NCBI GenBank assembly: GCA_943354605.1
Contig: CALRCK010000002.1
Location: 135,186-199,185, forward strand
Direction: 5' to 3'
Source of the DNA: Candidatus Uhrbacteria bacterium
GTDB lineage: Bacteria; Patescibacteriota; Patescibacteriia; UBA9934
Length of the DNA stretch: 64,000 nucleotides
This document shows positions 3,309 to 56,426 of the stretch, piece by piece. Within the stretch, counting starts at the first letter, position 1. The number at the start of each line of letters is the position of its first letter. The notes beneath the pieces are model-generated. The model was not told where the DNA came from. It did not search any database and saw only the letters and a program-made list of their open reading frames with translations. The position numbers and the translations under genes are program-made.

Positions 3309-4622
3309 CTACGGACGCAGTCGCTGCACATCACGCGGGAAGATGGTTGCCTCTTTGACGTTCGCAAGGCCGAGAACGTTTTGCGTCAATCGCTGCAAGC
3401 CAATCGCGAATCCGCCTTCTGGCGGAATGCCGTACTTGTGCATCATCAAGTAGTCCTCAAAATCTGCAACGTTCAATCCTTTATCCACGATGCGCCCCAT
3501 CTGCTCGTCGTACCGATTGATACGCATACCGCCGGACGTAATCTCGCTGCCGAATCCGATGACGTCAAACGTAAGCGTGTTCTCCGGGTTTGCCGGATCA
3601 ACCTTTGCATAGAATGGTCGCTTTGCTGGCGGCCAATCAGTCACGAACACGAATCCGCAGTTGTGGTGCTTCACCGACCACACAGTGGACAACCAGCGTT
3701 CAGCGGCTGGCGAGAGGTCTGGTTCCGATGTCTCATCGACTCCCCCCTCATCACGATACGCCTCGAGCGCCTGTTTCAAGCTTATGCGAGGAAACTTTTC
3801 GCCAAGTGGCGGCAACGTTACTTCAAGAAGTTTGAGCTCGACCGCGCATTCGCGCTCAACCGTTGCGAGCATCTCGCGAATTGCACCCTCTTCAACATCC
3901 ATCACCTCACTCATGTCAGAAACGAAGCCCATTTCAAACTCAAGCTGGTTGAATTCCGTTAAGTGACGCGACGTGGCAAACTTTTCTGCGCGGAACGAAT
4001 ACGACACGCCGTACACGCCCTCATACACGCCCATCGTAATCTGCTTGTAGAGCTGTGCAGACTGCGTAAGTGTTGCTTCGCGGCCGTAATAATCGACCTT
4101 AAAGAATTCCGCACCGCCTTCGCTCGCAGCTCCTGCGAGAACCGGGAAGAAAATTTCTGTGAAGCCCTGCTTTTCCATGAACGAGCGGTAGCCATGAACA
4201 AGCGCGGCCTGCACGCGAAAAATTGCGCGCTGTTTTGGATGACGAAGCGTCACGACGCGATTGTCGAGTAACGTATCAAGATTCGCATCAAGAACCGGCT
4301 TGCCGATTTCGACGGGAACGACATCGACGACCGGCGAAAGCACCTCGAGGCTCTCGACCTGCATTTCGACTTCTTTCACCGACGGATCCTTCGATTTCTT
4401 TTCAACAATCTTTCCAGTCACCGACAGCACTGTTTCGACCTGAAGCCCCTTCAACTGTTCGAGCTGTTCCGCATTCAACACGGTTTGTGCGAGCCCACTC
4501 CGATCTCGGATAATAGCAAAGCCAAACTTGCTCATGTCGCGAAGTGCGTTGAGCCAGCCGGCGATAGTGACGGTTTCGCCGAGCTTTGATGAGAGATCTT
4601 TGATGAGAATTCTATTTTTCAT
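3309..4622 (-). CDS. aspS: aspartyl-tRNA synthetase, archaeal/eukaryotic type (class IIb)
   Basis: Class II motifs (FRAEK..TSRHLTEF). C-terminal GGMRI...YGIPPEGGFAIGLQRL...FPRDVQRLRP matches archaeal-type AspRS. Confidence 0.8.
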   Translation of the reverse strand: MKNRILIKDLSSKLGETVTIAGWLNALRDMSKFGFAIIRDRSGLAQTVLNAEQLEQLKGLQVETVLSVTGKIVEKKSKDPSVKEVEMQVESLEVLSPVVDVVPVEIGKPVLDANLDTLLDNRVVTLRHPKQRAIFRVQAALVHGYRSFMEKQGFTEIFFPVLAGAASEGGAEFFKVDYYGREATLTQSAQLYKQITMGVYEGVYGVSYSFRAEKFATSRHLTEFNQLEFEMGFVSDMSEVMDVEEGAIREMLATVERECAVELKLLEVTLPPLGEKFPRISLKQALEAYRDEGGVDETSEPDLSPAAERWLSTVWSVKHHNCGFVFVTDWPPAKRPFYAKVDPANPENTLTFDVIGFGSEITSGGMRINRYDEQMGRIVDKGLNVADFEDYLMMHKYGIPPEGGFAIGLQRLTQNVLGLANVKEATIFPRDVQRLRP

Positions 4623-4660: not shown

Positions 4661-4663
4661 TCA

Positions 4664-4730
4664 GTCATCCCCGCGCAGGCGGGGATCCAGACCGTTCTGA
4701 ATGATGGATCCCCGCCTGCGCGGGGATGAC
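4664..4730. other. perfect 25-bp GC-rich inverted repeat with a 17-nt loop
   Basis: gtcatccccgcgcaggcggggatcc...ggatccccgcctgcgcggggatgac. Lies between the asnS stop and the aspS start. Confidence 0.85.
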
Positions 4731-4740: not shown

Positions 4741-6048
4741 TTATGGAGTTGAGCGGCTGAGCATGCGTGGGAAGGCAATGGTTTCGCGAATGTGGTGCAC
4801 GCCAGTGATCCATCGGACCGTTCGCTCAAGACCGATGCCGAAACCGGAGTGTGGCACGCTTCCGTACTTTCGTGTGTTCAAGTACCACTCGTACTCGGCT
4901 AATGGATAATTCCGATCGATAATCTCTTTCTTAAGCGCCTCGTAACTCTCTTCACGCTGACTGCCGCCGATAATCTCGCGGCCTTCTTCTGGTGCAATAA
5001 GATCGGCGCACCTGGCGCGAAGCACGCCGGCGTCGTCCGTGTATCGCTTCATGTAGAACGATTTAATCTCCGCAGGGTAATCTTCGATAAATACCGGAAG
5101 CTGATACTTGTCGCCAAGCGCGATTTCTTCCTCCGTCGACATGTCGCCGAGGAGATCGACGGGCTCGACGGTCAGCTTCTCGTTGTGAAGAATCTTCTTC
5201 GCCTCAGAGTGCTTCAAGTGAACGAATGGTTCGTTGACGATGCGCTCCAAGATCGTCGTATCGCGCTCCAAAATCGCGAGCTCTTGTTTGCAGTTATCAA
5301 GCACGTCTTTGACGATGCGCTTCACCATCTTTTCCTGTACATCCATGTTCATCACTTGGTCGAAGTACGCCATCTCGGCGTCCATCATCCAAAGCTCGCT
5401 CAAGTGATGGCGCGTCTTGCTCTTCTCTGCGCGGAACACTGGACCAAAGTCGTACACTTTTCCAAAGCCCATAATTCCCGCTTCGCTGTAGAGCTGACCA
5501 GACTGCGAGAGATACTTTGGTTCTCCGTAGTAATCCACCTGGAACAACTGCGTGGTATCTTCGCAGCTTGTTGGCTGAATGATTGGGGTATCGAAACGAA
5601 TGAATCCTTCTTCGTGGAAAAACTGTTCGATGGAGAAAAAGACGCGATCACGAATGCGCAGCACAGCCCATGGGGTTTGCGATCGGAGATACAGATCGCG
5701 GTTGTCGAAAAGGAATTCTGGACCGTGCTCTTTCTTTCCGATTGGATAATCCTCTGGTGCAACGTGCACCATCGTGAATCCCGTTCCTTGAATTTCAAAT
5801 CCTGATGGCGAGCGCGGTTCGGCCTTTACGATTCCCTTCACAATGACAGACGACTCAAGACGAACGCCCTGCAACGACTCCCACGATGCCGCGTCGATGT
5901 CGCTTGGCGAGTACACAACCTGAACTCGCCCCGATCCATCACGGAACTGGAGGAAGTAAATTTTGCCGCTGCTTCGAAAATTGTACGCCCAGCCCTTGAG
6001 CTCAACTTCTTGCCCGACCATGGATGCTAACTGTGAAATGTAGGTCAT
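4741..6048 (-). CDS. asnS: asparaginyl-tRNA synthetase
   Basis: Class IIb. C-terminal GGSQREESYEAL...EYEWYLNTRKYGSVPHSGFGIGLER, which is AsnRS-specific. Confidence 0.8.
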   Translation of the reverse strand: MTYISQLASMVGQEVELKGWAYNFRSSGKIYFLQFRDGSGRVQVVYSPSDIDAASWESLQGVRLESSVIVKGIVKAEPRSPSGFEIQGTGFTMVHVAPEDYPIGKKEHGPEFLFDNRDLYLRSQTPWAVLRIRDRVFFSIEQFFHEEGFIRFDTPIIQPTSCEDTTQLFQVDYYGEPKYLSQSGQLYSEAGIMGFGKVYDFGPVFRAEKSKTRHHLSELWMMDAEMAYFDQVMNMDVQEKMVKRIVKDVLDNCKQELAILERDTTILERIVNEPFVHLKHSEAKKILHNEKLTVEPVDLLGDMSTEEEIALGDKYQLPVFIEDYPAEIKSFYMKRYTDDAGVLRARCADLIAPEEGREIIGGSQREESYEALKKEIIDRNYPLAEYEWYLNTRKYGSVPHSGFGIGLERTVRWITGVHHIRETIAFPRMLSRSTP

Positions 6049-7684: not shown

Positions 7685-8461
7685 TTAGGGTCTCACCGGC
7701 ACCGCCAAGACGCCCGTCCAAAATGGCATGACGATTTCGCCGGGGACGTGGTAGACGTACACGTCGTGGACACATTGGACGAAATCTTCCACCTGCTGAC
7801 CGAGGAGCGGCATGCGCATGAGGGATTCGTACGATTCGTCGCGGCCAATGCGCATCAACGTCACGATTTCCTCGTCCATCGGACGAGCCGAGAACCAATC
7901 TTCAGGATTCTTCTGTACACAATCAGAACACACCAGTCCCCCACGTCCGCCGTGCCAGCGGAATGAAAGTGGGAGAACATTTTTCCGACACGCTAAACAA
8001 TCGTGAAGCTCGACGCCATAGCCGAGGCGGCCAAGCAGTCGAAGAATCGTTGCGCCGAGGACGAAAGCGCTTCTGGTATTTTGAAGTGTGATCTGCGAGT
8101 TTAAAAATCGAACAAGATCAATCACTTCATCGAACAGTTCGGGATCAGCCAAGTCCGGTCGAATCGCCTTGGCCAACATCGCGAATAATGTTTGCGTAAA
8201 CATTCGGTGTTCGAGATTCGTTTGAATCCGATCGAATACTTCGCGTCGTTCCACGCCGATAACAGTCGTCGATCGTGCGCCTTTCACGATTTCGAGCTCC
8301 ACGATCGCGAACGGTTCAAGATGTGCAGCAAGCTTTGCGCGCGGCTTTTGCGCACCACGCCCCACGAATTCAATCAACCCAAATTCCGGCGTTAAGGCGC
8401 TGTACCACCGATCGGATTCTCTCCACGCCGATGAAGTTAATACGATCGCCGTCGTTTTCAT
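7685..8461 (-). CDS. recO: DNA repair protein RecO
   Basis: OB-fold N-terminus and C-terminal Cys4 zinc motif (CLACRKN...CSDC). Confidence 0.75.
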   Translation of the reverse strand: MKTTAIVLTSSAWRESDRWYSALTPEFGLIEFVGRGAQKPRAKLAAHLEPFAIVELEIVKGARSTTVIGVERREVFDRIQTNLEHRMFTQTLFAMLAKAIRPDLADPELFDEVIDLVRFLNSQITLQNTRSAFVLGATILRLLGRLGYGVELHDCLACRKNVLPLSFRWHGGRGGLVCSDCVQKNPEDWFSARPMDEEIVTLMRIGRDESYESLMRMPLLGQQVEDFVQCVHDVYVYHVPGEIVMPFWTGVLAVPVRP

Positions 8462-8475
8462 CGTGCTCCACATAC

Positions 8476-8901
8476 TTATTCCTCCCGTCGCTTTGCGTCG
8501 TCAATCGTGAGCTCAACGTCGCCATCCAGAAATGCTTGGAGAATAATCTGCGCCGCAATCGCGTCTTCCGGCATCTCACTTCCGTATTCCTGTTGCAACC
8601 GACGAGCTTCGGCTGATGTGAATTGTTCGTCAACGACGAATACCGGCATCGATGTCGCGGTCTGTACATCGCGAACAAATTGCTTCGTCAATTCTAGCTG
8701 CGCATCAGACTGATGTGCGTCTGGAATCGGCAAACCGATGACAAGTGCCTCGGCGCCCTCGTCTCGAGCGCGGTTCATGATGGTCGAGATCGCCTTCACT
8801 CCCCCGTCGATATTGCCCATCGGAAACGCCAACCCCGTCTCGTCGTCGCCCGACGCAAGACCGATTTTCTTGAGGCCGAAGTCAATTCCTAAATATTTCA
8901 T
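8476..8901 (-). CDS. ruvX: Holliday junction resolvase-like YqgF/RuvX
   Basis: N-terminal YLGIDFGLKKIGLA motif. Start trimmed to MKYLGIDFG. Confidence 0.8.
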   Translation of the reverse strand: MKYLGIDFGLKKIGLASGDDETGLAFPMGNIDGGVKAISTIMNRARDEGAEALVIGLPIPDAHQSDAQLELTKQFVRDVQTATSMPVFVVDEQFTSAEARRLQQEYGSEMPEDAIAAQIILQAFLDGDVELTIDDAKRREE

Positions 8902-8914
8902 ATTCACAGCTCCG

Positions 8915-8993
8915 TCTTTGCGAGCGTAGCGAAGCAATCTCGGTTCACCCGGATTGCCGCGTCGCGATTACGCTCCTCGCAATGACGGAGTAT
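8915..8993. mobile_element. MITE-like element, copy M3
   Basis: Left arm tttgcgagcgtagcgaagcaatctcgg, right arm cgctcctcgcaatgacgg. Lies between ruvX and the upstream hypothetical gene. Confidence 0.55.
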
Positions 8994-8994
8994 G

Positions 8995-9438
8995 TTATTT
9001 CGCTTCTGGTGACGAAGTGAAATCTGCACGAACCGAAACGCTATTCGATGTAACCGGCATATCTTGTGAGATCACGAGTTTTCCGTCGCCGTTGTCCACA
9101 TGCAGCAGTGCGACGTACGTCAGTCCATCCTCCATTGGTTCCGACGTCAAAATCGTTACCGTCGCATTCTCGCTCGCGGCAATCAATCCGGATGAACCGA
9201 TGATTGGCCCAGGAGCACTCCCAATCGATTTGTGAATCGTCACGAATCCTGGCTTGAGGAGCGTTGCCGTGATATCGGCTTCGCCATTGCCTGGCGCGGT
9301 CGCGGCAATCGAGCTCCCCGTGATTTCAACAGGCCCATAGCTCAACTCTGGCGCAGGCTTGGCGAGATACAAAAACAGACCGATCGCCGCGATGACGATG
9401 AGGAGAATCACGCCGCCAAAAATATCGTCTTTTTTCAT
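8995..9438 (-). CDS. hypothetical membrane-anchored protein
   Basis: One N-terminal transmembrane segment followed by a Gly/Ser/Thr-rich domain. No recognisable motifs. Confidence 0.4.
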   Translation of the reverse strand: MKKDDIFGGVILLIVIAAIGLFLYLAKPAPELSYGPVEITGSSIAATAPGNGEADITATLLKPGFVTIHKSIGSAPGPIIGSSGLIAASENATVTILTSEPMEDGLTYVALLHVDNGDGKLVISQDMPVTSNSVSVRADFTSSPEAK

Positions 9439-9461
9439 AAAAAATTCGAATCGACTTACAG

Positions 9462-9556
9462 ATTCAGTCATCCTGAACGAAGTGAAGGATCTCTCGTATG
9501 TGATCCGGAATTCCCTACGAAGATTCTTCGCTACGCTCAGAATGACTGAGTGAATA
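9462..9556. mobile_element. MITE-like element with about 32-bp imperfect terminal inverted repeats, copy M1
   Basis: Left arm ttcagtcatcctgaacgaagtgaaggatctc and right arm gaagattcttcgctacgctcagaatgactgag flank a 25-bp core. No ORF of its own. Confidence 0.6.
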
Positions 9557-10342
9557 TTACATTGTGACTCCTCGGACTTTCGGTACAGGCGTGAGAATCT
9601 CTGGTCCGCTTGGCAAAATCGCGACAGTCACTTCGAAATGCGCCGCGTCGCTGTTGTCGGCGGTCACAATCGTCCACTCGTCATCAGAAACCTCCACCTC
9701 GTGCGTTCCCGTGGTCACCATCGGTTCGATAGCAATACACATTCCGTCCACGAGCGGCGCTTTTGGAAAATGCTTTCCGCGGAAATTTGGAACATTTGGT
9801 GCCTCGTGCACCTGATGCCCAACGCCATGACCAACGAGTGATTCTACGATACCGTAGCCCTTCGGCACCGCGTCTTCAACGGCCCCAGCGATATCCATGA
9901 CGGTGTTTCCGATGACTGCAGCATCGACGCCAGCCATCATCGAATCGTATGTGATACGAAGCAACGTTGCACGCTCCTTGGTAATCGATCCAATTGGTAC
10001 CGTTACCGCCATGTCTGTACAAAGCCCCTTATACCAGCATCCAATGTCGAGGCCGACGATATCGCCCTCGTCGAGAACGATTTCGCGATTGCCCAAACCG
10101 TGAACCACCTCCTCGTTTCTGGAGATACACACGGTTGCCGGGAAAGGCCGACTCTTTGATCCGTATCCAAGAAACGACGGCGTGCCACCACCAGCCTCAA
10201 TAACGCCGCGAGCAATGTCGTCCAGCTGTTTCATCGTCACGCCCGGCTTTGCGGCGTCAACCGCAGCCTGTAACGCCCTTGAAAGCAGTGCGCCGCCTTC
10301 ACGCATCGCCTGAATTTCTTCTTTCGTCTTAATATTCGCCAT
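9557..10342 (-). CDS. map: methionine aminopeptidase type I
   Basis: MetAP fold with metal ligands D..D..H..E..E. Sits at the end of the r-protein cluster together with adk, as is typical. Confidence 0.9.
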   Translation of the reverse strand: MANIKTKEEIQAMREGGALLSRALQAAVDAAKPGVTMKQLDDIARGVIEAGGGTPSFLGYGSKSRPFPATVCISRNEEVVHGLGNREIVLDEGDIVGLDIGCWYKGLCTDMAVTVPIGSITKERATLLRITYDSMMAGVDAAVIGNTVMDIAGAVEDAVPKGYGIVESLVGHGVGHQVHEAPNVPNFRGKHFPKAPLVDGMCIAIEPMVTTGTHEVEVSDDEWTIVTADNSDAAHFEVTVAILPSGPEILTPVPKVRGVTM

Positions 10343-10361
10343 ATTTTTTTCTTTCTTCCCA

Positions 10362-10447
10362 ATCCGTCATTGCGAGGAGAATGTAATCATTCAACGCGGC
10401 AATCTTGGCTCACCTAGATTGCTTCGCTACGCTCGCAATGACTGAAG
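10362..10447. mobile_element. MITE-like element, copy M2 (degenerate)
   Basis: Ends gtcattgcgag...ctcgcaatgac. Right arm gattgcttcgctacgctcgcaatgactga. Lies between map and adk. Confidence 0.55.
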
Positions 10448-10452
10448 TCTCA

Positions 10453-11019
10453 TTAACACCCGCCCTGTAGTGTACAAATTCCGTAAATACGATCAGCAAC
10501 TTCCTCAACCGTGCCAACGCCGTCAACTTCGCGAACCAATCCTAGCGAACGGTAATTGTTAATCATTGGTTCCGTATCCTGATCATAAATCTCGAGACGA
10601 CGGCGAATCGCTTCTGGCGTGTCGTCCGTTCGATGCTCGGTGCGGGATCGGTGCGCAATACGCTCGATGGAGACTTCACGAGGAACTTCGATGACGATAA
10701 CCGCAGTTGGCTTGTCGTGTTCAGCATACGCCTCGTATTGATCCTGGTTCCGAGGGAAACCATCCAGAATGTATCCATCCGCACAATCTGGTTTATCAAG
10801 ACGAGCACGAAGCACTTCCGCGACAACTTTTCCTGGCACAAGCTCCCCCTTTGCCTGGATGGCACGGATACGCTCCGCGAGATCGTCTGTTCCGGCTGCA
10901 GCGTCACGAAGCAGTTGCCCCATGGAAAACTGCGGGATTCCAAGACGCGCCGCCAAAATCACCGCCTGTGTTCCCTTCCCGCATCCCTGTGGTCCGAGCA
11001 GAAAGATTCTATGAATCAT
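10453..11019 (-). CDS. adk: adenylate kinase
   Basis: P-loop LLGPQGCGKGTQA and GYILDGFPRN. Start trimmed to MIHRIFLLG. Confidence 0.9.
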   Translation of the reverse strand: MIHRIFLLGPQGCGKGTQAVILAARLGIPQFSMGQLLRDAAAGTDDLAERIRAIQAKGELVPGKVVAEVLRARLDKPDCADGYILDGFPRNQDQYEAYAEHDKPTAVIVIEVPREVSIERIAHRSRTEHRTDDTPEAIRRRLEIYDQDTEPMINNYRSLGLVREVDGVGTVEEVADRIYGICTLQGGC

Positions 11020-11073
11020 AGGACTAATACAGGGGAAAGCGTACAGGATTTCACCCAAGCTCGCAACGACATT

Positions 11074-11108
11074 TCAACCCTTAGCGTTGACCGACCCTTA
11101 GGGTTGAA
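11074..11108. repeat. REP-like paired palindrome, copy 2 (opposite orientation)
   Basis: tcaacccttagcgttgaccgacccttagggttgaa. Between secY and adk, followed by a terminator hairpin. Confidence 0.8.
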
Positions 11109-11112
11109 AAAA

Positions 11113-11142
11113 GAAAAACACCGAATTCCCTCGGTGTTTTTC
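11113..11142. terminator. terminator hairpin after secY
   Basis: aacaccga-attccc-tcggtgtt followed by ttttc. Confidence 0.55.
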
Positions 11143-11169
11143 AAAAATGATTCTCGACCCTCAGCTTTC

Positions 11170-12426
11170 TTACACGTCGTACGCTCTCATGGTTAATTGA
11201 GATTGGACCTGCTTGACGATGTCGATCACCACGGAGACAACGATGATCATGGACGATCCGCCGACCGCGAGGTTCTGGTTGCCAGTGAAGCCCTGAACAA
11301 CGTTTGGAAGAATGGCGATCGTTGCAAGGAAGAATGCGCCGGAGAGCAACAAGCGGTTCATCACCCACTGCAAATACTTCGTGGTCTGTTCACCGGGGCG
11401 AACGCCTGGAATAAATCCACCCTGCTTCTGCAAGTTCTCCGAAATCTGTTCTGGACGGAACACAATCGAAGCGTAGAAGAAGGTAAAGGCGAACACGAGG
11501 ACGAAGTAAAGCACTGCGTGAACGGTGTTATTTTGGAACGTCACCACCATCCATTGTGCAATGTCGCGGATCACCTGCGTGCGAGCCTGGGTGAAGAACT
11601 GCGCCAACAATGGAGGAAGGACGACAATGGAAAGCGCGAAGAGAATTGGAATCATTCCACCAATGTTCAAACGAAGCGGCAATGACGACTGCACCTTGCC
11701 CGACATCTGTCCGCCGCCTCGAGCGTACTGAACCACAATGTTTCGCTGACCCTCGGTCACGATAACCACACCAACGATCGTAATCACCGCGAGTGCAACA
11801 AAGAGCGCAATGCTCAGCATGTCACCAGAGTTGTATGTTGCGGCAGCCTGTGCAATAGCGCCAGGAAGGCCGGCCATAATACCTGCAAAGATGAGGAGCG
11901 AAATACCATTTCCCATTTTACGTTCCGTCGCCAATTCACCAAGCCACATGAGGAAAATGGTTCCTGCAGCCATGGAAATCAACGCGAAAATCAATTGCAA
12001 TCCGGTCAAATGAATACCAAGCTGTTGCTGAGTTTCAATCAAGCGCAACACACCGTATCCCTGCAAAAACGCGAGAGGAACCGTGGCGAAACGTGTGTAA
12101 CGATTGATGCGCTGGCGGCCCTGCTCTTCTTTCTGCATTTCTTCCAAACTTGGGAAGATCATTCCCAGCAACTGGAAGATAATTGACGACGTAATATACG
12201 GAGAGACGCCGAGTGCAACAACGGAGAAGTTCTTCAGCGTGCCTCCCGAAAACATGTTCAAGATGCCCAAAAACTGGTTTCCTTCCAAAATGGAAGACAA
12301 CCCCGACGCATCAATACCCGGAACCGGAATGTGCGCCGCCACGCGGAACACCACAACCACAAAGACGATGAACAGGAGCGCATTACGGAGTTCCGGAATG
12401 CGGAAGATGCGTTTCAGGGTTTCCAT
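11170..12426 (-). CDS. secY: preprotein translocase subunit SecY
   Basis: Ten transmembrane segments with typical SecY N-terminus. Follows rplO. Confidence 0.9.
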   Translation of the reverse strand: METLKRIFRIPELRNALLFIVFVVVVFRVAAHIPVPGIDASGLSSILEGNQFLGILNMFSGGTLKNFSVVALGVSPYITSSIIFQLLGMIFPSLEEMQKEEQGRQRINRYTRFATVPLAFLQGYGVLRLIETQQQLGIHLTGLQLIFALISMAAGTIFLMWLGELATERKMGNGISLLIFAGIMAGLPGAIAQAAATYNSGDMLSIALFVALAVITIVGVVIVTEGQRNIVVQYARGGGQMSGKVQSSLPLRLNIGGMIPILFALSIVVLPPLLAQFFTQARTQVIRDIAQWMVVTFQNNTVHAVLYFVLVFAFTFFYASIVFRPEQISENLQKQGGFIPGVRPGEQTTKYLQWVMNRLLLSGAFFLATIAILPNVVQGFTGNQNLAVGGSSMIIVVSVVIDIVKQVQSQLTMRAYDV

Positions 12427-23165: not shown

Positions 23166-23645
23166 CTAATCGATCTGTTCAAGGTAGAACTCTTCCTCCC
23201 CTCCTTCGCTCCGACTTGACTTCTTTTTGACGACTTCCCGAGGCTTTTCGACATTTTTCTCTTGCTCCTGTGTTTTGGGCACCTCTACCGGCGCCTGCCA
23301 AAGACTCTTCAGCGCCTCCTCGTCGATATCCGCCTCGTCGAAAGCCTCATCCGTAACCTCAGCGGCGATTTCTTCGGACAGCTCGATCATCGCCTCAGCC
23401 TCCTCCTCAACCCCACTCATAGGCGCCCCCGACCTCGCCCGACCATCGCCATACACCGGCAAATCAATCCCCTCATCGCTAAATGTCCCCTCCCCAGGCC
23501 CAAACGCCTGATCGATAAGCGCTTCGTACTCCTCCAGCGGCAAAATCACCATTGGCTCGCCTCCCCCAGCCTCGTCCGTCACAATCAGCCGATCGCCCGT
23601 TCTCCGGGCCAACCGCAACAGTCGAGGAATGTGATTGATCGCCAT
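23166..23645 (-). CDS. hypothetical acidic protein
   Basis: About 160 aa with a very D/E-rich C-terminal half. The N-terminus (RLIVTDE...PMVILPLEEYEAL) weakly resembles Phd/YefM-like folds. No adjacent toxin gene. Confidence 0.4.
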   Translation of the reverse strand: MAINHIPRLLRLARRTGDRLIVTDEAGGGEPMVILPLEEYEALIDQAFGPGEGTFSDEGIDLPVYGDGRARSGAPMSGVEEEAEAMIELSEEIAAEVTDEAFDEADIDEEALKSLWQAPVEVPKTQEQEKNVEKPREVVKKKSSRSEGGEEEFYLEQID

Positions 23646-23791
23646 ATGCAGCCATCTTAGGAAGTGTGGGAGCAAAGGGCAAGGGGCGTTAGAGCTTTTT
23701 TGGACTTTTCTTCTAGAAAATGCTAAAATGTTTGGTCCGATCTCAAACCGGCCTCAGGCCAAGGAAGTGACTCGTGCGTTTTCCTCAAATC

Positions 23792-33902: not shown

Positions 33903-36257
33903 TTACTGGTGTATCTCAACAACAGAATCCGTCACGGCAACACAAATATCGCCCATCTGATCCGTGCGGAAGATCTTTGCCCCGACCGATTCCAATCGAC
34001 CGATCGTAAACGGACTTGGATGGCCGTAATGGTTATCGGCTCCCACCGAAATAATCGCGTATTCCGGCTTCAGCATTTCCAGAAAATCGAGACTCGACGA
34101 CGTGTCGCTGCCGTGGTGGCCAACCTTGAGGACGTCGACGTGACCGATGTCGCCGAGTTGTGCCTCGACCTCGGCTTCTGCATCGCCAGTAAAGAGCATT
34201 TTCTTTTCGCCAACGGTGAGAAGCGCGACAACAGATCGAGCATGGACGTTCTCAGCGGTGAGGTCGGTGGTGGCGTCGGGAGGCCAGAGCATGCTCAACG
34301 TCGAGTCCGAACCGAGCAACCAAGATTGCTTCGCTGCGCTCGCAATGACGGAATTCGATTCCGATTTCGCAGAATCGAACGCCTCGGCCGAAGCCGCGGA
34401 GTACGCCATGCCGTTGTCCACGATCTCATTAACGGAATGTGTTGCGATGAGATCAATGAGTCCGTTGATGTGATCGGCGTGCGGATGCGTGGCAATAATC
34501 GCATCGAGGTGCCGCTCCCATGGAAATCGCACCGTCGAAAGTTTCTCCACCATACCAAAACGCGTTGGCCCGCCGTCGATGACGATGTCGCGATCCGCGC
34601 CGTCCAAATAGATGCCGTCGCCTTGTCCAACGTCAAACACCCACACATGAACACCGTTCGTGTTCCATCGTTCGCCGTGAATTCCGATGATGCCGATGTT
34701 TACGATGAATAACAGGATGAAGGCACCAACCATGAATCGAATATGTTCCCAATGCCAGGAATCGAGGCTGCGTTCGAATGCTGGATGAAGCTTGCGAATC
34801 ATCGATGCGGCGGTGGCTAGTCCGATCATTGAAACAATCACTGCGATCGATGGCGGAATCGGCACAGAGGCAAATGGGATTCGGGCAAAAGCTCCGATAA
34901 TGCCAGTCATCGAAACCAAAGCAGTCCATGCGGGAAGCGCGACCCAGACTCCGATCTGCGGAATGATCGACGAGACCAGAATCGATCCCGCACCAAATGC
35001 CATAGCAAACGGAATAAACGGCAGCACGAGCATGTTCACGAATGGCGCGACAACGGAGAGCGAGCCGAATGAAACAAGTGTAATCGGAAGAGTTGAGATC
35101 GTTGCAGCAAGCGTTGACGCGAGTGACTCACGAACGCCGAACGATGATGGAATCCTTTTCAAGAACGGAGCAATCCGATCGGTGAGCACAATCAAGCCGA
35201 TTGTCGCAGCAACCGAAAGCTGAAACCCAACATCATCTCGCAACAATCGTGGTTCGACGAGAAGCATGACGGCAACGGTGAGCGCGATGATATTTCGCGG
35301 CGACGTGTGGCGGCCAATATGTCGTGATGTCAGCGCAAGAACACCCATCACTCCAGCACGAATTACCGCAGCACCGGCGCCGGCGATGATGACGAATCCG
35401 CCGATCATCAACACGATGATTGGAAACGCTTGTCGTCGATACAATCCCAGCGTCACGAGAAGAATCAACGCGAGGTCGGCAACAACGGCCACGTTGTATC
35501 CGCTTGCCGCAACAATGTGACTCGTCCCCGTCTCACGAAACGCCGTCTTCCACGTTTCCGAAAACGAATTCTCCCCCATCAATAAACCGAGGAGAAGCGT
35601 TGCCTGTGGCTCCGGAAGCATTGATCGAACGCGTTGGTCGATTAACTCGTGAATCGCACCGATCGTCATGTAAAATTCGTCGCCAATCGACGGCCCAGCT
35701 GGCGCAAACGTAAATGGTGCGCTTGATACTCGACAAATCGCGTAAATCGATTTCGCCGCAAGGAACCGATCGTATGCAAAGCCATCGAACGGCTGCGGCT
35801 CCTCCAAAACACATGACGCGCGGATTCTTTCACCGATCTTCCCCACCGACGATATCGGTGCGTCGATAAGAATGCGATCGGATCTTGCCGGATTCGATGG
35901 CGCCTCAATCGATAGCAGATCGACCGTATACGTCACGCCGTCATCTTTCAGATCGGCGCCGATGATACGGCCCTCAACCACAACAATCTTCCCCACCTCG
36001 TTCGCAATCGAATTCGTCCCAGGCCCAACGCTCCAATATCGTCCAACACCGATGAGGATCCCAGTCGCGAACATGCCAACCAAAAGCGCCCGATCCCTTT
36101 GCGGAATCGAACGCGTCAACCAAAACACTATTCCAAGGAATCCAATCGCGGCGATCACGATCGGCGCAATTGGCAACCAGGACGCGAAAGCAATTCCCAC
36201 GCCAATCCCAACACAAACAAGAAACAGGATCAAACTTAGCGACGATCCGATCTTCAT
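33903..36257 (-). CDS. comEC: DNA internalization-related competence protein ComEC/Rec2
   Basis: Polytopic membrane domain plus a C-terminal metallo-beta-lactamase domain (ATHPHADHINGL, VGHHGSD). Confidence 0.85.
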   Translation of the reverse strand: MKIGSSLSLILFLVCVGIGVGIAFASWLPIAPIVIAAIGFLGIVFWLTRSIPQRDRALLVGMFATGILIGVGRYWSVGPGTNSIANEVGKIVVVEGRIIGADLKDDGVTYTVDLLSIEAPSNPARSDRILIDAPISSVGKIGERIRASCVLEEPQPFDGFAYDRFLAAKSIYAICRVSSAPFTFAPAGPSIGDEFYMTIGAIHELIDQRVRSMLPEPQATLLLGLLMGENSFSETWKTAFRETGTSHIVAASGYNVAVVADLALILLVTLGLYRRQAFPIIVLMIGGFVIIAGAGAAVIRAGVMGVLALTSRHIGRHTSPRNIIALTVAVMLLVEPRLLRDDVGFQLSVAATIGLIVLTDRIAPFLKRIPSSFGVRESLASTLAATISTLPITLVSFGSLSVVAPFVNMLVLPFIPFAMAFGAGSILVSSIIPQIGVWVALPAWTALVSMTGIIGAFARIPFASVPIPPSIAVIVSMIGLATAASMIRKLHPAFERSLDSWHWEHIRFMVGAFILLFIVNIGIIGIHGERWNTNGVHVWVFDVGQGDGIYLDGADRDIVIDGGPTRFGMVEKLSTVRFPWERHLDAIIATHPHADHINGLIDLIATHSVNEIVDNGMAYSAASAEAFDSAKSESNSVIASAAKQSWLLGSDSTLSMLWPPDATTDLTAENVHARSVVALLTVGEKKMLFTGDAEAEVEAQLGDIGHVDVLKVGHHGSDTSSSLDFLEMLKPEYAIISVGADNHYGHPSPFTIGRLESVGAKIFRTDQMGDICVAVTDSVVEIHQ

Positions 36258-36261: not shown

Positions 36262-36307
36262 CTAACTTAGTTTGTCGCGAACTAAGTTAGTCACAAACTT
36301 AGTTCGT
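36262..36307. repeat. tandem 13-bp palindrome array (3 units) between the leuS stop and the comEC start
   Basis: ctaacttagtttg-tcg-cgaactaagttag-tca-caaacttagttcg. Overlaps the leuS stop codon. Confidence 0.75.
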
Positions 36308-38623
36308 TGATGCTACAACAAAATTCACCAACTTCCCCTTCACCACAATCGTCTTTTTCGGTTCGTCGATGACGTACTTCGCCACATTCTCGTCAGCACG
36401 CGCCATCCTCACAATCGTCTCTTCAGCTTCATCAGCCGCAATCACGATCGTCCCACGCAACTTTCCGTTCACCTGCACCGCGATTTCAATAGTGTCGTCC
36501 TTCAGCATCAACGGATCAGCGACCGGCCATTCCTGTTCTTCCACGAATCCTGTTCCGCCAAGCTGCTCCCACATTTCGTTTGCGACGTGTGGCGCGAATG
36601 GAACAAGTACACGCAAGAACGTTTTCAACGATTCCTTGGTAATCGCACCCTTTTCCTGCACCACATTCACAAACATCATAAGTTGCGCAACGGCGGTATT
36701 GAATCCAAATCCCTCAATGTCACCCGAAACTTTCGCGATCGTCTTGTGCAACATCTTCGTCACCTCAGCGTCTTCAGCGTCGGCAACCTTCTCGCTCATG
36801 CGAATCGCCTTGTCCAAGAATCGTCGCACGCCGATCACACCATTTGTATTCCATGGTACAGGCTCCTCAAACGGGCCCATAAACATTTCATACACCCGAA
36901 GCGTGTCAGCACCGTGCTCGTTCACAATTTCGTCAGGATTCACCACATTCCCCTTCGATTTCGACATCTTCGTTCCGTCCTCGGCCATAATGAGGCCATG
37001 GCTATGACGACGTGCATATGGCTCACTTGTTGGAACGTACCCGCGATCGAACAAAAACTTATTCCAGAAACGTGAATACAATAAATGGAGAGTGGTGTGC
37101 TCCATGCCGCCGTTGTAGATATCGATCGGCATCCACTGCTTTAATGCCTCTTTTGACGCGAATTCCTTGTCGTTGTGCGGATCGGTGTATCGGAGGAAAT
37201 ACCAACTCGATCCCGCCCAGTTTGGCATCGTGTCCGTTTCGCGTTTCGCTGGCCCGCCACACTGAGGACATTTCGTGTTCACGAAGCTCTCAATATTCGC
37301 CAGTGGCGATTCACCATTCTCCGTTGGCTGATAATTCTCAACAGTTGGTAAAATAACTGGAAGCTCTTCCGTTGGCACCGCAACCCAACCGTCCTTCTCG
37401 CAGTGCACCAACGGAATCGGCTCCCCCCAATAGCGCTGTCGGGAGAAGACCCAATCGCGAAGTTTATATTGCACTTTCTTTCGACCACCGGCCTTCTCAA
37501 CGGCCTCATCAAACGAAACGAGAGGTCGATCAACGCTTGGCAAGTTCATCACCTCAGCAAATGCACGATCGCGCTCATCGTGTTGCGGCACTGCCATAAC
37601 CGCGCCAGTTCCGTAGTGACCGAGGACATAATCCGCAATCCACAATGGAACCTTCTCGTTGTTCACTGGATTGATGACGAACGCGCCGGTGAATACTCCT
37701 GTCTTCTCTTTCGTTTCGTCGCCACGCTCAATATCGGTTTTCGATTTCACCGATGCGATGTATGCGTCAACCGCACTTCGCTGTTCCGTTGAAACAATCG
37801 ACGCAACCAGCGGATGTTCCGGCGCAAGCACAACGTATGTCACACCAAAAATCGTATCGGGGCGCGTTGTAAAAACAGTAATAATTCCCGACGGAGATTC
37901 TTCGCTTTGCTCAGAATGACTAATCCGGAAATCAATCTCCGCGCCTTCGCTGCGCCCAATCCATTCTTCCTGCTGTTTCTTGATTTTCGGTAAATAGTTC
38001 ACGCTGTCGAGATCGGAGAGCAAGCGGTCTGCGTATTTGGTAATCGCGATCATCCACTGCGACTTCATCTTCTTTTCCACCGTCGTTCCACAGCGCTCGC
38101 ACTTTCCCGCAATCACTTCCTCGTTCGCGAGTCCGCACAAATCTTTTGGACACCAATTGATCGCCATTTCCGCTTTGTATGCGAGTCCGGCCTTAAAGAA
38201 TTCCAAAAACATCCACTGCGTCCATTTGTAGTACGCAGGATCTGTCGTGTTCACCTCGCGGCTCCAGTCAAAACTAAAGCCCATGGACTGGAGTTGGCGA
38301 CGAAACGTATCAATGTTTGTCTGCGTAAAGGTTCCGGGATGATTTCCGGTTTTGATCGCGTAGTTTTCTGCTGGCAAACCGAATGCATCCCAACCCATTG
38401 GGAACAACACGTTCTTGCCCTCCATACGGCGCTTTCGCGCAAGAATGTCCATCGCGGTGTAGCTTCGTGGGTGACCAACGTGAAGCCCGGCACCCGATGG
38501 ATACGGGAATTCCACGAGCAAATAGCACTTTTCCTTCGGCGAATCATTCTTTGCTTCAAAAACACCCTCGTCTATCCACCGCTTCTGCCACTTTCCATCG
38601 ATACTCTTGTGGTCGTACGACAT
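36299..38623 (-). CDS. leuS: leucyl-tRNA synthetase
   Basis: HVGHPRSY (HIGH) and KMSKSKGN (KMSKS) motifs. Confidence 0.95.
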   Translation of the reverse strand: MSYDHKSIDGKWQKRWIDEGVFEAKNDSPKEKCYLLVEFPYPSGAGLHVGHPRSYTAMDILARKRRMEGKNVLFPMGWDAFGLPAENYAIKTGNHPGTFTQTNIDTFRRQLQSMGFSFDWSREVNTTDPAYYKWTQWMFLEFFKAGLAYKAEMAINWCPKDLCGLANEEVIAGKCERCGTTVEKKMKSQWMIAITKYADRLLSDLDSVNYLPKIKKQQEEWIGRSEGAEIDFRISHSEQSEESPSGIITVFTTRPDTIFGVTYVVLAPEHPLVASIVSTEQRSAVDAYIASVKSKTDIERGDETKEKTGVFTGAFVINPVNNEKVPLWIADYVLGHYGTGAVMAVPQHDERDRAFAEVMNLPSVDRPLVSFDEAVEKAGGRKKVQYKLRDWVFSRQRYWGEPIPLVHCEKDGWVAVPTEELPVILPTVENYQPTENGESPLANIESFVNTKCPQCGGPAKRETDTMPNWAGSSWYFLRYTDPHNDKEFASKEALKQWMPIDIYNGGMEHTTLHLLYSRFWNKFLFDRGYVPTSEPYARRHSHGLIMAEDGTKMSKSKGNVVNPDEIVNEHGADTLRVYEMFMGPFEEPVPWNTNGVIGVRRFLDKAIRMSEKVADAEDAEVTKMLHKTIAKVSGDIEGFGFNTAVAQLMMFVNVVQEKGAITKESLKTFLRVLVPFAPHVANEMWEQLGGTGFVEEQEWPVADPLMLKDDTIEIAVQVNGKLRGTIVIAADEAEETIVRMARADENVAKYVIDEPKKTIVVKGKLVNFVVASTN

Positions 38624-50283: not shown

Positions 50284-50478
50284 TTATCCAGTAAAACTCT
50301 CGACCGACAATCCACTCTGTTTAATGATGTGGTGCAGGGTCCCAATTCGGAAATCCTTCGTATGATACGGAACAACGAGGACAATCGATTCCCGAACGTA
50401 CTTTCGATGGCTGCCTTTTTGAGAAATCAAACGGAATCCTGCTTTTTCTAAAATACGGATCACGTCTTTTGGCTTCAT
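50284..50478 (-). CDS. hicA: HicA-family mRNA interferase toxin
   Basis: Reads MKPKDVIRILEKAGFRLISQKGSHRKY...VPYH..KDFRIGTLHHIIKQSGL. Track ORF extends upstream; trimmed. Confidence 0.65.
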   Translation of the reverse strand: MKPKDVIRILEKAGFRLISQKGSHRKYVRESIVLVVPYHTKDFRIGTLHHIIKQSGLSVESFTG

Positions 50479-50500
50479 CGGGAGAAGATGAACCATACAC

Positions 50501-50743
50501 TTATGCAACAACACTGACACCAGCAAGAATGACACGCGGTGAAATTTTCTTCTGCAACCGTTTTGGCGCGCCTTCAAGATAGAGTCCCGCGGCTTCCTGA
50601 ATATTCTCAAGCGCCTCCTCGAAGGAGTCGCCCTCTGAAACACAGCCTGGCAATTCAGGAATGGTGACTGTATATCCGCCAACGTTCCCGTCCTCCTCGA
50701 AAACCGCGGTAAATTGACGAACGGCTTGGATACGTTTCTTCAT
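50501..50743 (-). CDS. hicB: HicB-family antitoxin (UPF0150)
   Basis: Contains YTVTIPELPGCVSEGDSFEEALENIQEA. Directly upstream of hicA. Confidence 0.6.
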   Translation of the reverse strand: MKKRIQAVRQFTAVFEEDGNVGGYTVTIPELPGCVSEGDSFEEALENIQEAAGLYLEGAPKRLQKKISPRVILAGVSVVA

Positions 50744-50787: not shown

Positions 50788-51372
50788 CTATTTCGTAAAC
50801 CGATTCTGCATGTGCATCGAGGCGTGCATGAAATCGATAATATCTTTCGTGATGTCGATCGGTACGCGGTTCGTCCAAATTTCTTTGTACCACACCGACG
50901 AATCGTTCTTCCAAAATTCGCACACGGGTGTTTCCGACTCGTGATACAGTTTTAATCGCGCATCAACAACGTGAGCTTGGTCGTCGTGCCTGCCACGAAC
51001 TTTCAAACGGTCGCGAACGTCGTCGTCGGAAAGCATCAAGTGCACAACGTGAGTTGGATGATCGAACGAAAGATAGGTCTCGAGCTTGTCGAGTGATCGC
51101 GTATATCCGTTCAGGATGTAGCCATTCTTGCAGCTCTCGTCTGCCAAGCGTTCCTTCACCAACCGCGTCACAATCTCCTCCGGAACCATTTCGCCCCGCG
51201 ACATGTAGCCAGCCGCGGTAATACCGTCTGGCGTCTGTTTCACAATTTCTGATCGGAGCAACCCACCCATCGAGATCGATGGAATGCCGAACGTTGCCGA
51301 AAGCACTGCGGCGTGGGTATCCTTGCCTGATCCTGGTGGGCCACACAACACAATTTTGACGGGAGAATTCAT
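50788..51372 (-). CDS. adenylate kinase-like nucleoside monophosphate kinase (divergent second paralogue)
   Basis: P-loop VLCGPPGSGKDTHA and an Adk-like core. The NMP-binding motif is altered (GYILNGYTRS in place of G(F/Y)xLDGFPRT). Short LID of the RGRHDD type. Confidence 0.65.
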   Translation of the reverse strand: MNSPVKIVLCGPPGSGKDTHAAVLSATFGIPSISMGGLLRSEIVKQTPDGITAAGYMSRGEMVPEEIVTRLVKERLADESCKNGYILNGYTRSLDKLETYLSFDHPTHVVHLMLSDDDVRDRLKVRGRHDDQAHVVDARLKLYHESETPVCEFWKNDSSVWYKEIWTNRVPIDITKDIIDFMHASMHMQNRFTK

Positions 51373-54651: not shown

Positions 54652-55755
54652 CTAGAGCCCTGGAAAAACATCCATATACTTGGGAAGATCAATTATTCGG
54701 AGACCGGATGGTGGAATATTCTTCTGAATTTGCAAATCTGGATACCGCGAGCTGAGAAGCATGGAAACACACTCTCCAAGCGTCCCCTCCTTTTTCCAAG
54801 AGGCTTCACGAAAATCTGTATAAGATTGAATTCCAGTCTTCTCCTGATGTACCAAAATCCTTGGAATTAATACCATCTTTGGATCACTTTCCTTTCCTCC
54901 AAACTTCATCCAATACTTTTCAAAAAAGCTCAAAATTTCAGTACATTCCTCGTCCGTAAGATTCCGATACGACTTGTGTTCCGCAATGAAAGATTCATCT
55001 TTGGTTCTATTCTTCTGAATCCAGGCTTCAAGATTTCTCCGAGCTGAAATGTGGTCACGTTTATGAAATGCTTTTTTATCGTATGGCGGAGTAAGTCCGA
55101 TATGCCAACCTTCACAAACAAACTGAGCAAACCACTCCGGCGATACAACGCCGTAACGATATATGGAATCTACGTTATCGCCGATCGATGTTTTTCCTTC
55201 GCTATTAATATCTCCCCACCCTAAGAGCATCGGTGTACCAACGGCTCGGCCGATATCCATGATCCGTCGTAATTCACCCCAATCCCATGCCCTGGTCTGT
55301 GGATCAAGCCCGTGCTCACGAATAGATTCGGTAAAAAAACCGTTGAACGAATGAAATACGAAGCCGTTCCTAAAAAATCTCTCATGAATATATGAGACGA
55401 TCGCATTCGACGAATCATCATCTCGAACTCCCTGAATGCCGATCTCTTGGGCTATCAGCTGAACAAGTAAGGGGCTCGTCTGTTTTCGTCGTTCGTAGTC
55501 ATTTTGAAGAGACGACTCAGCCTTCTTCAATTCCTGGAGATATGAGGAAACGCTGGTTGCATTTGGAAAAAGAATCCAAAATTCAACAATCAATCCAATC
55601 AAAAGCTCGCGAAACTTTTCGGGAAATTCACGAATAATCTCAAGTGTTTCGGGCGAGTTGAGGAGCGCGGTGAGTTGGCGCTCCTGAACTTCCCTTTCTG
55701 AAACGGTTTCTTCGCGAAGATCTCCAGCAGCTTCAAAAGTCATAGAACTGATCAT
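54652..55755 (-). CDS. hypothetical protein (AT-rich islet next to tRNA-Lys)
   Basis: 367 aa coherent ORF with GC near 42 percent. No recognisable motifs. Confidence 0.5.
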   Translation of the reverse strand: MISSMTFEAAGDLREETVSEREVQERQLTALLNSPETLEIIREFPEKFRELLIGLIVEFWILFPNATSVSSYLQELKKAESSLQNDYERRKQTSPLLVQLIAQEIGIQGVRDDDSSNAIVSYIHERFFRNGFVFHSFNGFFTESIREHGLDPQTRAWDWGELRRIMDIGRAVGTPMLLGWGDINSEGKTSIGDNVDSIYRYGVVSPEWFAQFVCEGWHIGLTPPYDKKAFHKRDHISARRNLEAWIQKNRTKDESFIAEHKSYRNLTDEECTEILSFFEKYWMKFGGKESDPKMVLIPRILVHQEKTGIQSYTDFREASWKKEGTLGECVSMLLSSRYPDLQIQKNIPPSGLRIIDLPKYMDVFPGL

Positions 55756-55764
55756 CAGGAAATT

Positions 55765-55971
55765 CTACGGCGTGAGAACGAAAATCTTTGTGGCAAAGTA
55801 GGTGATAATAAGCGCAATACCAATACCCATCACTGCAAGAACCACATTCAAAACAGCTCGCGCATCTTTGTCGTCGTTAATGAAGCCGAAGAAGATATAC
55901 GCCGCGAAGCCGATGATCAAGAGAAGTGGAAAGCCGGTCAACACAATGCCGGCAAGAAGAAGCATGGACAT
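55765..55971 (-). CDS. small two-transmembrane hypothetical protein
   Basis: 68 aa from the ATG at 55969-55971. The track ORF runs into the tRNA and was trimmed. Confidence 0.35.
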   Translation of the reverse strand: MSMLLLAGIVLTGFPLLLIIGFAAYIFFGFINDDKDARAVLNVVLAVMGIGIALIITYFATKIFVLTP

Positions 55972-56027
55972 ATTGCGTATAGTATAGCAAAAAAGAAAAC
56001 GACCTCCAAAAAGAGAGATCGTGTTCT

Positions 56028-56102
56028 GGTGCACCGGGCGGGATTCGAACCCACGACCAAGTGATTAAGAGTCACCTGCTCTACCGCTGAGCTACCGATG
56101 CA
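56028..56102 (-). tRNA. tRNA-Lys (anticodon CTT)
   Basis: Manual fold of GCATCGG acceptor, GCTC/GAGC D-stem, GGTGA-CTCTTAA-TCACT anticodon arm, TTCGAAT T-loop and encoded CCA. Confidence 0.8.
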
Positions 56103-56109
56103 TGGTTGA

Positions 56110-56215
56110 ACTTCCTCATTTCGCCCATTTTCGACTTGCTCCTCGACGATATCGACGACGTACCGAGAAGTACGTCTTGACGATCCCGTCTTCGTCGCGC
56201 ACCGAAACTGGTCTG
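56110..56215. repeat. structured about 110-nt dispersed repeat, copy D (opposite orientation, between the two tRNAs)
   Basis: Reverse complement matches the family (ttcgcccattttcgacttgc...cgtaccgagaagtacgtct...gcgcaccgaaactgg). Confidence 0.7.
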
Positions 56216-56302
56216 AAATGAGAGCGTTCAACGCCAGCAATGATGCACAATTTTTTGACCCGGGTCAAGAAAACGAGTACTATTGCGTCGTTCAGTGGAT
56301 AT

Positions 56303-56379: not shown

Positions 56380-56380
56380 T

Positions 56381-56415: not shown

Positions 56416-56426
56416 GAATCCTTCGC

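Follow-up and report, generated by a model that had tools for sequence, protein, structure and literature searches.

The tail of the ribosomal-protein/secY operon in a 64,000-nt stretch of a Candidatus Uhrbacteria contig (hereafter the window, with a G+C content of 52%) contains three short inverted repeats, designated M1, M2 and M3, and arms of the same repeat are found singly and in-frame inside comEC and leuS. The question raised by this locus is what these repeats are and how their copies spread. A sequence-only reading of this DNA had considered them similar to MITEs, the miniature transposable elements with inverted repeats. The comparisons presented here place M1-M3 and the intragenic arms in a sub-family, characterized by long loops, of the superfamily of CGTC-tagged repetitive extragenic palindromes (REPs). 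Furthermore, we consider it probable that these copies, together with a fourth dimer at 4664-4730, are CGTC-tagged REPs (also described as NTS or Ssn-related motifs, SRM) that have spread in trans through a single-stranded DNA (ssDNA) route dependent on the GIY-YIG nuclease Ssn. The elements of the window are the following:

8914-8986, no strand assigned: M1, long-loop head-to-head dimer ending in GTC...GAC, with its inverted repeat reaching 8910-8990; arms GTCTTTGCGAGCGTAGCGAAGCAATC on the left and, as reverse complement, GTCATTGCGAGGAGCGTAATCGCGACGCGGCAATC on the right; between the stop of the DUF7282 gene (8995) and the start of ruvX (8901)
9467-9546, no strand assigned: M2, long-loop head-to-head dimer with an extended inverted repeat at 9463-9550; arms GTCATCCTGAACGAAGTGAAGGATC and (reverse complement) GTCATTCTGAGCGTAGCGAAGAATC; 10 nt past the map stop
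10366-10442, no strand assigned: M3, long-loop head-to-head dimer, 10 nt past the adk stop and 23 nt before the map start
4664-4730, no strand assigned: fourth dimer, of the classical CGTC-1/SRM type, with arms GTCATCCCCGCGCAGGCGGGGATCCAG
34324-34349, minus strand: single arm in comEC, GTCATTGCGAGCGCAGCGAAGCAATC, in-frame and encoding VIASAAKQS
37896-37920, minus strand: single arm in leuS, GTCATTCTGAGCAAAGCGAAGAATC, in-frame and encoding SHSEQSEES

The three intergenic copies among housekeeping genes and the in-frame single arms noticed by the sequence-only reading were both recovered with refined limits, the latter on the coding strand of their genes, while the dimer at 4664-4730 had been overlooked. 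M1-M3 measure 73-80 nt, each of them begins 8-10 nt past a stop codon, and M3 is 85% identical to the reverse complement of M1 over 52 nt. The comEC arm is placed in the metallo-beta-lactamase domain of ComEC (gene 33903-36257, minus strand) and the leuS arm directly precedes the TVFTTRPDT block (gene 36299-38623, minus strand). Folding of the dimers yields -35 to -48 kcal/mol and z-scores between -3.3 and -7.1, with about the same result for either strand (M1, -48.3 kcal/mol and z -7.0; M2, z -5.4/-7.1). Rfam at the gathering threshold gave two tRNAs and no family covering the repeats, and at a relaxed threshold the region 8850-10500 yielded nothing other than a chance match to mir-384. Literature searches by raw DNA or peptide strings, which covered few subscription journals, returned nothing relevant.

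All long-loop arms of the window (8/8) share one layout, namely an HGTC tag, a 5-nt half-stem starting with AT, a loop, the complementary half-stem and a C. The stems (ATTCT/AGAAT, ATTGC/GCAAT and ATCCT/AGGAT) are all of 5 bp, the loop of 11-21 nt is the conserved GAGCGNAGCGA(A), of 11-12 nt, or a longer version, and the tag is CGTC in four arms and AGTC in the other four. In M1-M3, as in the dimer at 4664-4730, the two arms are disposed head-to-head with the tags outside. The species-representative genome set and IMG/VR were scanned with the first 21 nt of the arm fixed and the second stem half left free, and the arm statistics given here cover the matches listed. Arms with GC at the variable stem positions continued with the matching GCAAT in 89 of 94 cases, and those with CT had the matching AGAAT in 42 of 47; altogether, a matching second half-stem was present in 131 of the 143 pattern-selected arms, and nearly all of them continued with C. 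Partner arms, which were not selected by the search pattern, displayed at least seven stem variants and a perfect 5-bp self-complement in 101/176 cases, versus 2.4% of shuffles. Complete elements of other genomes span 62-124 nt, again with the tags outside and with a variable centre, and the base at position -1 was most often C (55 of 95 such elements), followed by T (35) and A (5).

The repeat had been predicted to be widespread and this was clearly the case. The exact 21-nt pattern was found at no fewer than 120 loci of the species-representative genomes, distributed over 14 or more phyla, and in no fewer than 120 IMG/VR contigs, whose arm matches may include host flanks of prophages. According to the record titles, the groups with the pattern comprise Alpha-, Gamma- and 'Delta'-proteobacteria, Nitrospirota, Nitrospinota, Chloroflexota, Acidobacteriota, Bacteroidota, Ignavibacteria, Fibrobacter, Planctomycetota, Verrucomicrobiota, Omnitrophota, Bacillota, Abditibacteriaceae and Gracilibacteria. 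Arms were absent from 80 more distant syntenic loci around Map homologues and, as a consequence, the distribution of the long-loop family within Patescibacteria is patchy.

The families CGTC-1 to -4 of CGTC-tagged REPs, which include Neisseria dRS3 and the Rickettsia RPE-4 and RPE-6 repeats, have been described by Di Nocera, De Gregorio & Rocco (2013; PMC3733652). In that work, the tag is CGTC, TGTC or CCTC, the stems start with AT and have 8-9 bp, the loops have 4-5 nt, and a CCA tail is present in most alphaproteobacterial copies; the repeats are mostly head-to-head dimers with variable spacers, located less than 20 nt after the ends of open reading frames (ORFs), and they have 'no dedicated transposase' and in-frame copies in, among others, tRNA synthetases and Wolbachia ComEC. 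M1-M3 and the intragenic arms resemble them in the tag, the AT start, the head-to-head dimers, the placement at ORF ends and the in-frame copies. However, a stem of 8-9 bp with a loop of 4-5 nt was found solely in the dimer at 4664-4730, a textbook CGTC-1 copy whose arms have an 8-bp stem, a 4-nt loop and a CCAG tail and which lies between two adjacent paralogous tRNA-synt_2 (AspS/AsnS-like) genes (3309-4622 and 4741-6048). The long-loop arms depart from the published description in their 5-bp stems and 11-21 nt loops, in the AGTC tag of half of them, and in their peptides, which are VIASEAKQS, VILSEAKNL and VILNEVKDL versus the published VIPAKAGI, VIPGLDPGI and VIPWLDHGI; moreover, a Patescibacteria host is unreported in PMC3733652. 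The classical dimer alongside the long-loop elements indicates that two arm families coexist in this small genome.

Regarding the initial proposal of MITE-like elements, the description as non-autonomous inverted-repeat elements holds, and small size and terminal inverted repeats would also fit classical MITEs derived from an insertion sequence with a DDE transposase. However, the sense of the term that implies target-site duplication does not apply, since 90 of the 95 complete elements of other genomes lack a direct repeat. Nor were the target-site duplications sought around M1-M3 recognisable, as their flanks merely lengthen the inverted repeat by 1-4 nt. In addition, no associated insertion sequence was present in the 120 listed arm loci, and the arms exist as autonomous single units. 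The similarity of the intragenic copies could also be fortuitous; against this, they match at 24-25 of 25-26 nt, and the quoted arm gave two matches at three or fewer mismatches when 0.00 were expected from 100 shuffles. Either explanation, classical MITEs or chance, thus seems to us barely credible.

The enzyme that could handle these repeats was approached through their neighbours. All-versus-all clustering of 2,454 ORFs from 120 listed arm-bearing loci revealed a single recurrent family that was not generic, a GIY-YIG protein (PF01541) of about 95 aa; the other recurrent neighbours at these loci belonged to generic families alone (ABC ATPases, kinases, SDRs). In five phyla, an ssn-like GIY-YIG ORF is located exactly between two long-loop arms (L026, Gracilibacteria; L038, Planctomycetota; L111, Bacillota; L119, Omnitrophota; L211, a Planktothrix plasmid, Cyanobacteria). 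At three of these loci (L038, L111 and L119), 9-13 nt separate the left arm from the ATG and 0-7 nt separate the stop from the right arm. The association was also seen when homologues were picked by protein alone: CGTC-type arms flank 8 of 10 diverse plasmid homologues, among them the Planktothrix one with long-loop arms and one from Azospirillum, and a bracketing inverted repeat is present around 41 of 51 homologues on viral contigs, the figure for displaced controls being 4 of 47. For three of the plasmid homologues, windows of 50 kb were inspected, in which most arms adjoin the ORF. In a Rhizobium plasmid, two dimers lacking the ORF share with the ORF-bearing unit the arms and subterminal stretches of some 20 and some 35 nt, and about 25 nt take the place of the 285-nt ORF. 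Such dimers are internal-deletion versions of arm-ssn-arm units.

The proteins beside long-loop arms in the five phyla are 50-58% identical to one another and 37-51% identical to those beside CGTC-1/3 arms. That of L038 shows 44% identity (E = 2e-26) to the gonococcal SsnA homologue, and the closest solved structure is UPF0213 BH0048 (1ZG2). Such GIY-YIG proteins were classed as prokaryotic Slx1-like by Dunin-Horkawicz et al. (2006; PMC1564403), where 'fusions' were also recorded, one with a TrmH methyltransferase in Erythrobacter litoralis and one with the domain within HsdR of Deinococcus radiodurans and missing in D. geothermalis. Such fusions might reflect host genes that have received an arm-ssn-arm unit and are read through it. 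Two of the units call for a further remark. On plasmid AZO_p3 of Azospirillum lipoferum 4B (255397-255903; L215/L343), ssn with two CGTC-1 dimers lies between sufB and sufC in the suf operon. In L038 (around 4950-5650), a host sequence of no fewer than 38 nt (TTGAACGTAAGCTATAACTGGTTAAAAGAGCTTGTCGA) is repeated on either side of the arm-ssn-arm unit, and one of the copies is continued by an ORF that enters the left arm. The arrangement resembles a long target duplication or a repair footprint, unlike the short dimers, which are duplication-free.

The Ssn family (cd10448) and the names SRM and NTS come from the work of Chenal et al. (2025; PMC11893778), and so the GIY-YIG/CGTC-repeat association reported here is an independent confirmation and not a discovery. 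In that study, SsnA of N. meningitidis binds its NTS (CGTCATTCCCGCGMAVGCGGGAATCYRG) exclusively as ssDNA and cuts a few nt upstream of GTC, the GTC being critical for cleavage and the C after the palindrome for binding; Ssn does not bind RNA. The Neisseria system restricts incoming transforming ssDNA and modulates natural transformation, the various Ssn homologues possess specificities of their own, the order NTS-ssnA-NTS resembles an insertion sequence, and Ssn is encoded in 81% of the genomes with more than 200 SRM. The eight long-loop arms of the window have the same HGTC-palindrome-C order, with GTC 5' and C 3' of the palindrome. The arm-ssn-arm architecture is shared by the long-loop family in L026, L038, L111, L119 and L211, although not by the window, and likewise the single-domain GIY-YIG protein of about 95 aa, 44% identical to the gonococcal homologue, stands beside long-loop arms. 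Neither intragenic copies nor hosts from Patescibacteria, or the candidate phyla radiation (CPR), are discussed in PMC11893778.

A comparable logic is known for the REPIN-RAYT systems of GTAG REPs (Bertels & Rainey, 2011; Nunvar, 2010; Ton-Hoang, 2012), in which hairpins with an unpaired tag, inverted doublets that replicate as a unit, an enzyme gene present once and bordered by the repeats, ssDNA substrates and the lack of target duplication are also found. It was thus considered that the repeats of the window could be REPINs moved by a RAYT or an IS200-IS605-type Y1 (HUH) transposase. However, the tag here is YGTC and not GTAG, the enzyme associated with the arms has a GIY-YIG domain, and the long-loop arm family is by contrast near-identical across many phyla. 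Y1_Tnp was detected in no scanned ORF of the window, none of the 120 listed arm loci had a recurrent transposase, and Di Nocera et al. (PMC3733652) found no RAYT flanked by CGTC repeats. A RAYT-type origin is accordingly very improbable.

By analogy with the Neisseria enzyme, the Ssn-dependent spread that we favour would proceed as follows. The arms would be bound as ssDNA by a cognate Ssn nuclease of about 95 aa and cut a few nt 5' of the GTC, and two inverted arms with the tags outside form the long hairpin of a head-to-head dimer. Dimers without ORF and single arms would then spread in trans by an ssDNA route that leaves no duplication, with a nuclease that is presumably encoded in another part of the genome or was present formerly. 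The landing sites are about 10 nt past stop codons in the compact secY-adk-map-ruvX operon and, at times, in-frame positions in tolerant protein loops. In the window, the consequences are new intercistronic hairpins and, for LeuS and ComEC, 7-9 residues that have been added or exchanged.

The two intragenic arms have different histories. LeuS orthologues that are 87-94% identical to that of the window read F-(V/A)(V/I)(D/E)GSSEK-ITVFTT in place of F-RISHSEQSEESPSGI-ITVFTT (for instance, VVEGSSEK or AVDGSSEK instead of RISHSEQSEESPSGI), and, when L123 as the closest orthologue is taken for comparison, the arm represents a net gain of 21 nt. These alignments agree with the claim of the sequence-only reading that the LeuS segment is a lineage-specific insertion. 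Among the orthologues compared, only P0010/L125 shares the arm of the window; its LeuS is more distant (86.6%) than that of P0002 (93.8%), which is insertion-free. Over the arm, the window and P0010/L125 are identical at 35 of 36 nt, while the gene as a whole is 78% identical (P = 0.0016). Other arm variants occupy the same codon in L345 (AGTCATCCTGAGCGTAGCGAAGGAAC) and L346 (GCCCATCCTGAACGAAGTGAAGGATCTCTC), and a full dimer does so in L344. An unrelated perfect palindrome, CCCCTCCTTACGAAGGAGGGG (PLLTKEG), was also observed at this codon in L124 (LeuS 10001-12313) and P0024. The LeuS loop just before the TVFTTRPDT block of the editing domain seems to receive palindromic insertions in general. 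The insertion-free allele (L123, compared with 37880-37930 of the window) reads GTCGTC|GAAGGATCGTCGG, so that the 'empty' site, GTCGTCGAAGGATC, already holds GTC plus the 3' end of the arm, GAAGGATC. This pattern points to either microhomology-guided copying or site mimicry.

On the other hand, the proposal that the comEC segment is a simple recent insertion did not hold, because the arm is common to every orthologue examined and is recognisable as VIAS..QS down to 58% identity. It is identical at 27 of 27 nt to that of the L124 orthologue, the rest of the gene being 79% identical (P = 0.002), and in L123 it is worn by a 6-nt internal deletion. In addition, it aligns with a native beta-strand of more distant ComECs (VIASAAKQSWLL versus v.v.aGd.i.l). 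Both the sharing down to 58% identity and the alignment with a native strand indicate an old event of replacement type. As judged from these alignments, the translated arms of comEC and leuS are conserved at nucleotide level beyond their genes, and this suggests that they are more than decaying relics. Similar cases exist in Rickettsia, whose palindromic elements were reportedly described by Ogata and colleagues in 2000 as being read in-frame within housekeeping proteins, at sites where the surface tolerates them. RPE-1, of about 100-150 nt, is the longer element. In the present case, by comparison, translation involves only single arms of 25 nt or, in one relative, a dimer, and the same LeuS codon has been struck repeatedly in different lineages.

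The intergenic dimers are, for their part, absent from the operon of close relatives. The adk-map spacer has 110 nt in the window, 8 nt in L206/L207 and 4 nt in L210; the map-DUF7282 spacer, 118, 30 and 5 nt, respectively; and the DUF7282-ruvX spacer, 93, 176 and 1 nt. The Map proteins of these relatives are 87% (L206/L207) and 84% (L210) identical to that of the window. M2 and M3 are missing at the syntenic spacers of L206/L207, as are all three elements in L210, and M1-M3 are consequently gains in the lineage of the window. At the M1 site, L206 (4993-5168) and L207 (3978-4153) have an unrelated, GC-rich palindromic insert of 176 nt with long internal complementarity (GGTGGCACCGAAGGAGGCCCCCATGGGG...CACCCCGATGGGGTCTTCGGTGAC).

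These spacers bear on a further possibility, that the repeats are kept for a role of their structure in host RNA or DNA, either as intercistronic mRNA stabilisers or processing sites or as ssDNA-restriction marks controlling how incoming DNA recombines, their mobility being incidental. The position of three dimers 8-10 nt past stop codons in one operon, their strong folding on the mRNA strand and the nucleotide-level constraint on the intragenic arms would fit this role, REPs have been proposed as mRNA stabilisers (PMC3733652), and NTS modulate natural transformation in Neisseria (PMC11893778). However, in close relatives the same operon functions without the elements, with spacers of 1-30 nt, both strands fold equally, and Ssn does not bind RNA. 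We regard a structural role as the primary cause of their presence as improbable.

Several results weigh against the Ssn-dependent spread. A Pfam scan of about 40 ORFs detected no ssn, other GIY-YIG or transposase gene in the 64-kb window, and none was found in about 80 kb of the close relatives examined. Among the listed loci selected by their arms, a GIY-YIG gene is carried by 4 of 120 genomic and by 1 of 120 viral ones, and in this viral contig it is not adjacent to the arms. The published SRM pattern, HGTCWYN(0-2)YYVSBRHN(0-5)WNVSBRGN(0-2)RNCYNB, matches the classical window arm at 4663-4690 but 0/8 long-loop arms of the window and 0/143 of those listed from other genomes. The hairpin of a single long-loop arm is weak as ssDNA, with -1.6 to -2.7 kcal/mol, values that do not surpass those of shuffles, so that it is covariation that argues for the 5-bp stem; for the classical single arm at 4664 the energy is -9.7 kcal/mol (z -4.8). 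The Ssn biochemistry covers sister families, and in Neisseria Ssn was shown to cleave and restrict ssDNA, not to transpose, which makes mobilisation by Ssn an extrapolation. Finally, the filled LeuS alleles contain +18 nt and +3 nt and not a whole 25-nt arm, so that the LeuS event is not a clean whole-arm insertion.

Some of these data would be better accommodated if ssn were a passenger, or homing parasite, in the spacer of existing dimers, and the arms were copied by the host through template switching or microhomology-primed ectopic gene conversion. The empty LeuS site has both arm ends (GTC and GAAGGATC) and the filled alleles resemble an 18-nt 'fill-in', different arm variants occur at the same codon across LeuS lineages, and the intragenic arms are identical while their genes diverge, as concerted evolution predicts. 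Most of the listed arm-bearing loci are, besides, without a nearby ssn, and the documented activity of Ssn is that of a nuclease and restriction factor, not of a transposase (PMC11893778). However, the protein sub-family tracks the arm family across phyla (50-58% versus 37-51% identity), dimers without ORF and the ORF-bearing unit share subterminal sequence as deletion derivatives do, and 81% of the genomes with more than 200 SRM encode Ssn (PMC11893778). A passenger ssn with copying by the host is for these reasons an unlikely explanation, and the spread of the repeats by an Ssn-dependent route is still the one that we prefer.

More tentatively, the long-loop arms and their own Ssn clade may constitute a distinct selfish arm-ssn-arm element, horizontally transferred, possibly phage-borne and now active in Patescibacteria and many other phyla. 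If this were true, integration would take place by the ssDNA route at sites mimicking the arm ends (GTC...GAAGGATC), which would explain the repeated strikes on the same LeuS codon. The intragenic arms would then be kept at nucleotide level as nuclease or recombination sites, and the arms would act as ssDNA-restriction marks in essential genes of naturally competent, DNA-scavenging CPR bacteria.

What this work adds to the known repeats is the long-loop sub-family outside the published SRM pattern, its occurrence in Patescibacteria and at least 14 phyla, and the LeuS hot spot, along with the arm-like empty site in LeuS, the nucleotide-level conservation of translated arms and the deletion-derivative relation. 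As the sub-family is invisible to the SRM pattern, the censuses of Ssn targets and the catalogue of specificities of interest for ssDNA biotechnology are incomplete. Furthermore, the repeats colonise even CPR genomes of about 1 Mb, where they land in the most conserved operon and in LeuS and ComEC, and the repeated strikes on LeuS, with its arm-like empty site, offer a handle on how they are copied. They also yield false start codons and odd 'insertions' in phylogenetic marker proteins.

The operon that contains M1-M3 occupies the minus strand of the window, the repeats being lodged in its tail (8476-11019), at the end of the ribosomal-protein/secY operon. Its genes, and recO next to it, are these:

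11170-12426, minus strand: secY, which like the ribosomal-protein cluster is upstream of the operon tail
10453-11019, minus strand: adk
9557-10342, minus strand: map
8995-9438, minus strand: gene of a DUF7282 membrane protein
8476-8901, minus strand: ruvX
7685-8473, minus strand: recO

The relatives of the LeuS and Map proteins of the window are Patescibacteria near Candidatus Uhrbacteria. The ENA contig ERZ27280315:k141_241213 (148.9 kb) includes the window, and its public gene call was used for comparison. In this call, the DUF7282 gene starts at an ATG within the terminal ATGAC of M2 (9438-9471; L121 2972-3448), giving a protein of 158 aa with 11 added residues (MTESVSRFEFF) versus 150-152 aa in relatives; the 11-codon N-terminal extension is spurious. 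The peptide ...ILNEVKDLS...RFFATLRMTE, previously placed on M1, is in fact the tail of a plus-strand ORF (9359-9553) which crosses M2. As to the suspicion that such translations are routinely annotated as proteins, a 60-aa ENA protein made wholly of arm translations and the false DUF7282 start are in its favour, whereas none of nine plasmid places annotated with PGAP overlaps a coding sequence and the plus-strand ORFs across the repeats are omitted by the gene call of the public contig, so that as a general statement it was only weakly supported. The 60-aa protein was the one match of a search with a composite of arm translations against 5.8 billion proteins, a search too insensitive for 9-aa motifs, in which just four candidates shared words. 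An independent assembly of the locus, the Logan contig ERR5863123_63190 (L122, 2974 nt), terminates within M2, and the repeats therefore probably break short-read assemblies.

Some other features of the window were recorded. Five large ORFs (367, 267, 446, 818 and 640 aa) fill the region 54652-63988; four of them were scanned without a Pfam match, the 640-aa ORF (62066-63988) lying outside that scan. An ORF with a HicA-toxin domain (50284-50682) adjoins a second adenylate-kinase-like gene (50788-51372), and a weak PhdYeFM antitoxin-like ORF (23166-23675) adjoins tuf.

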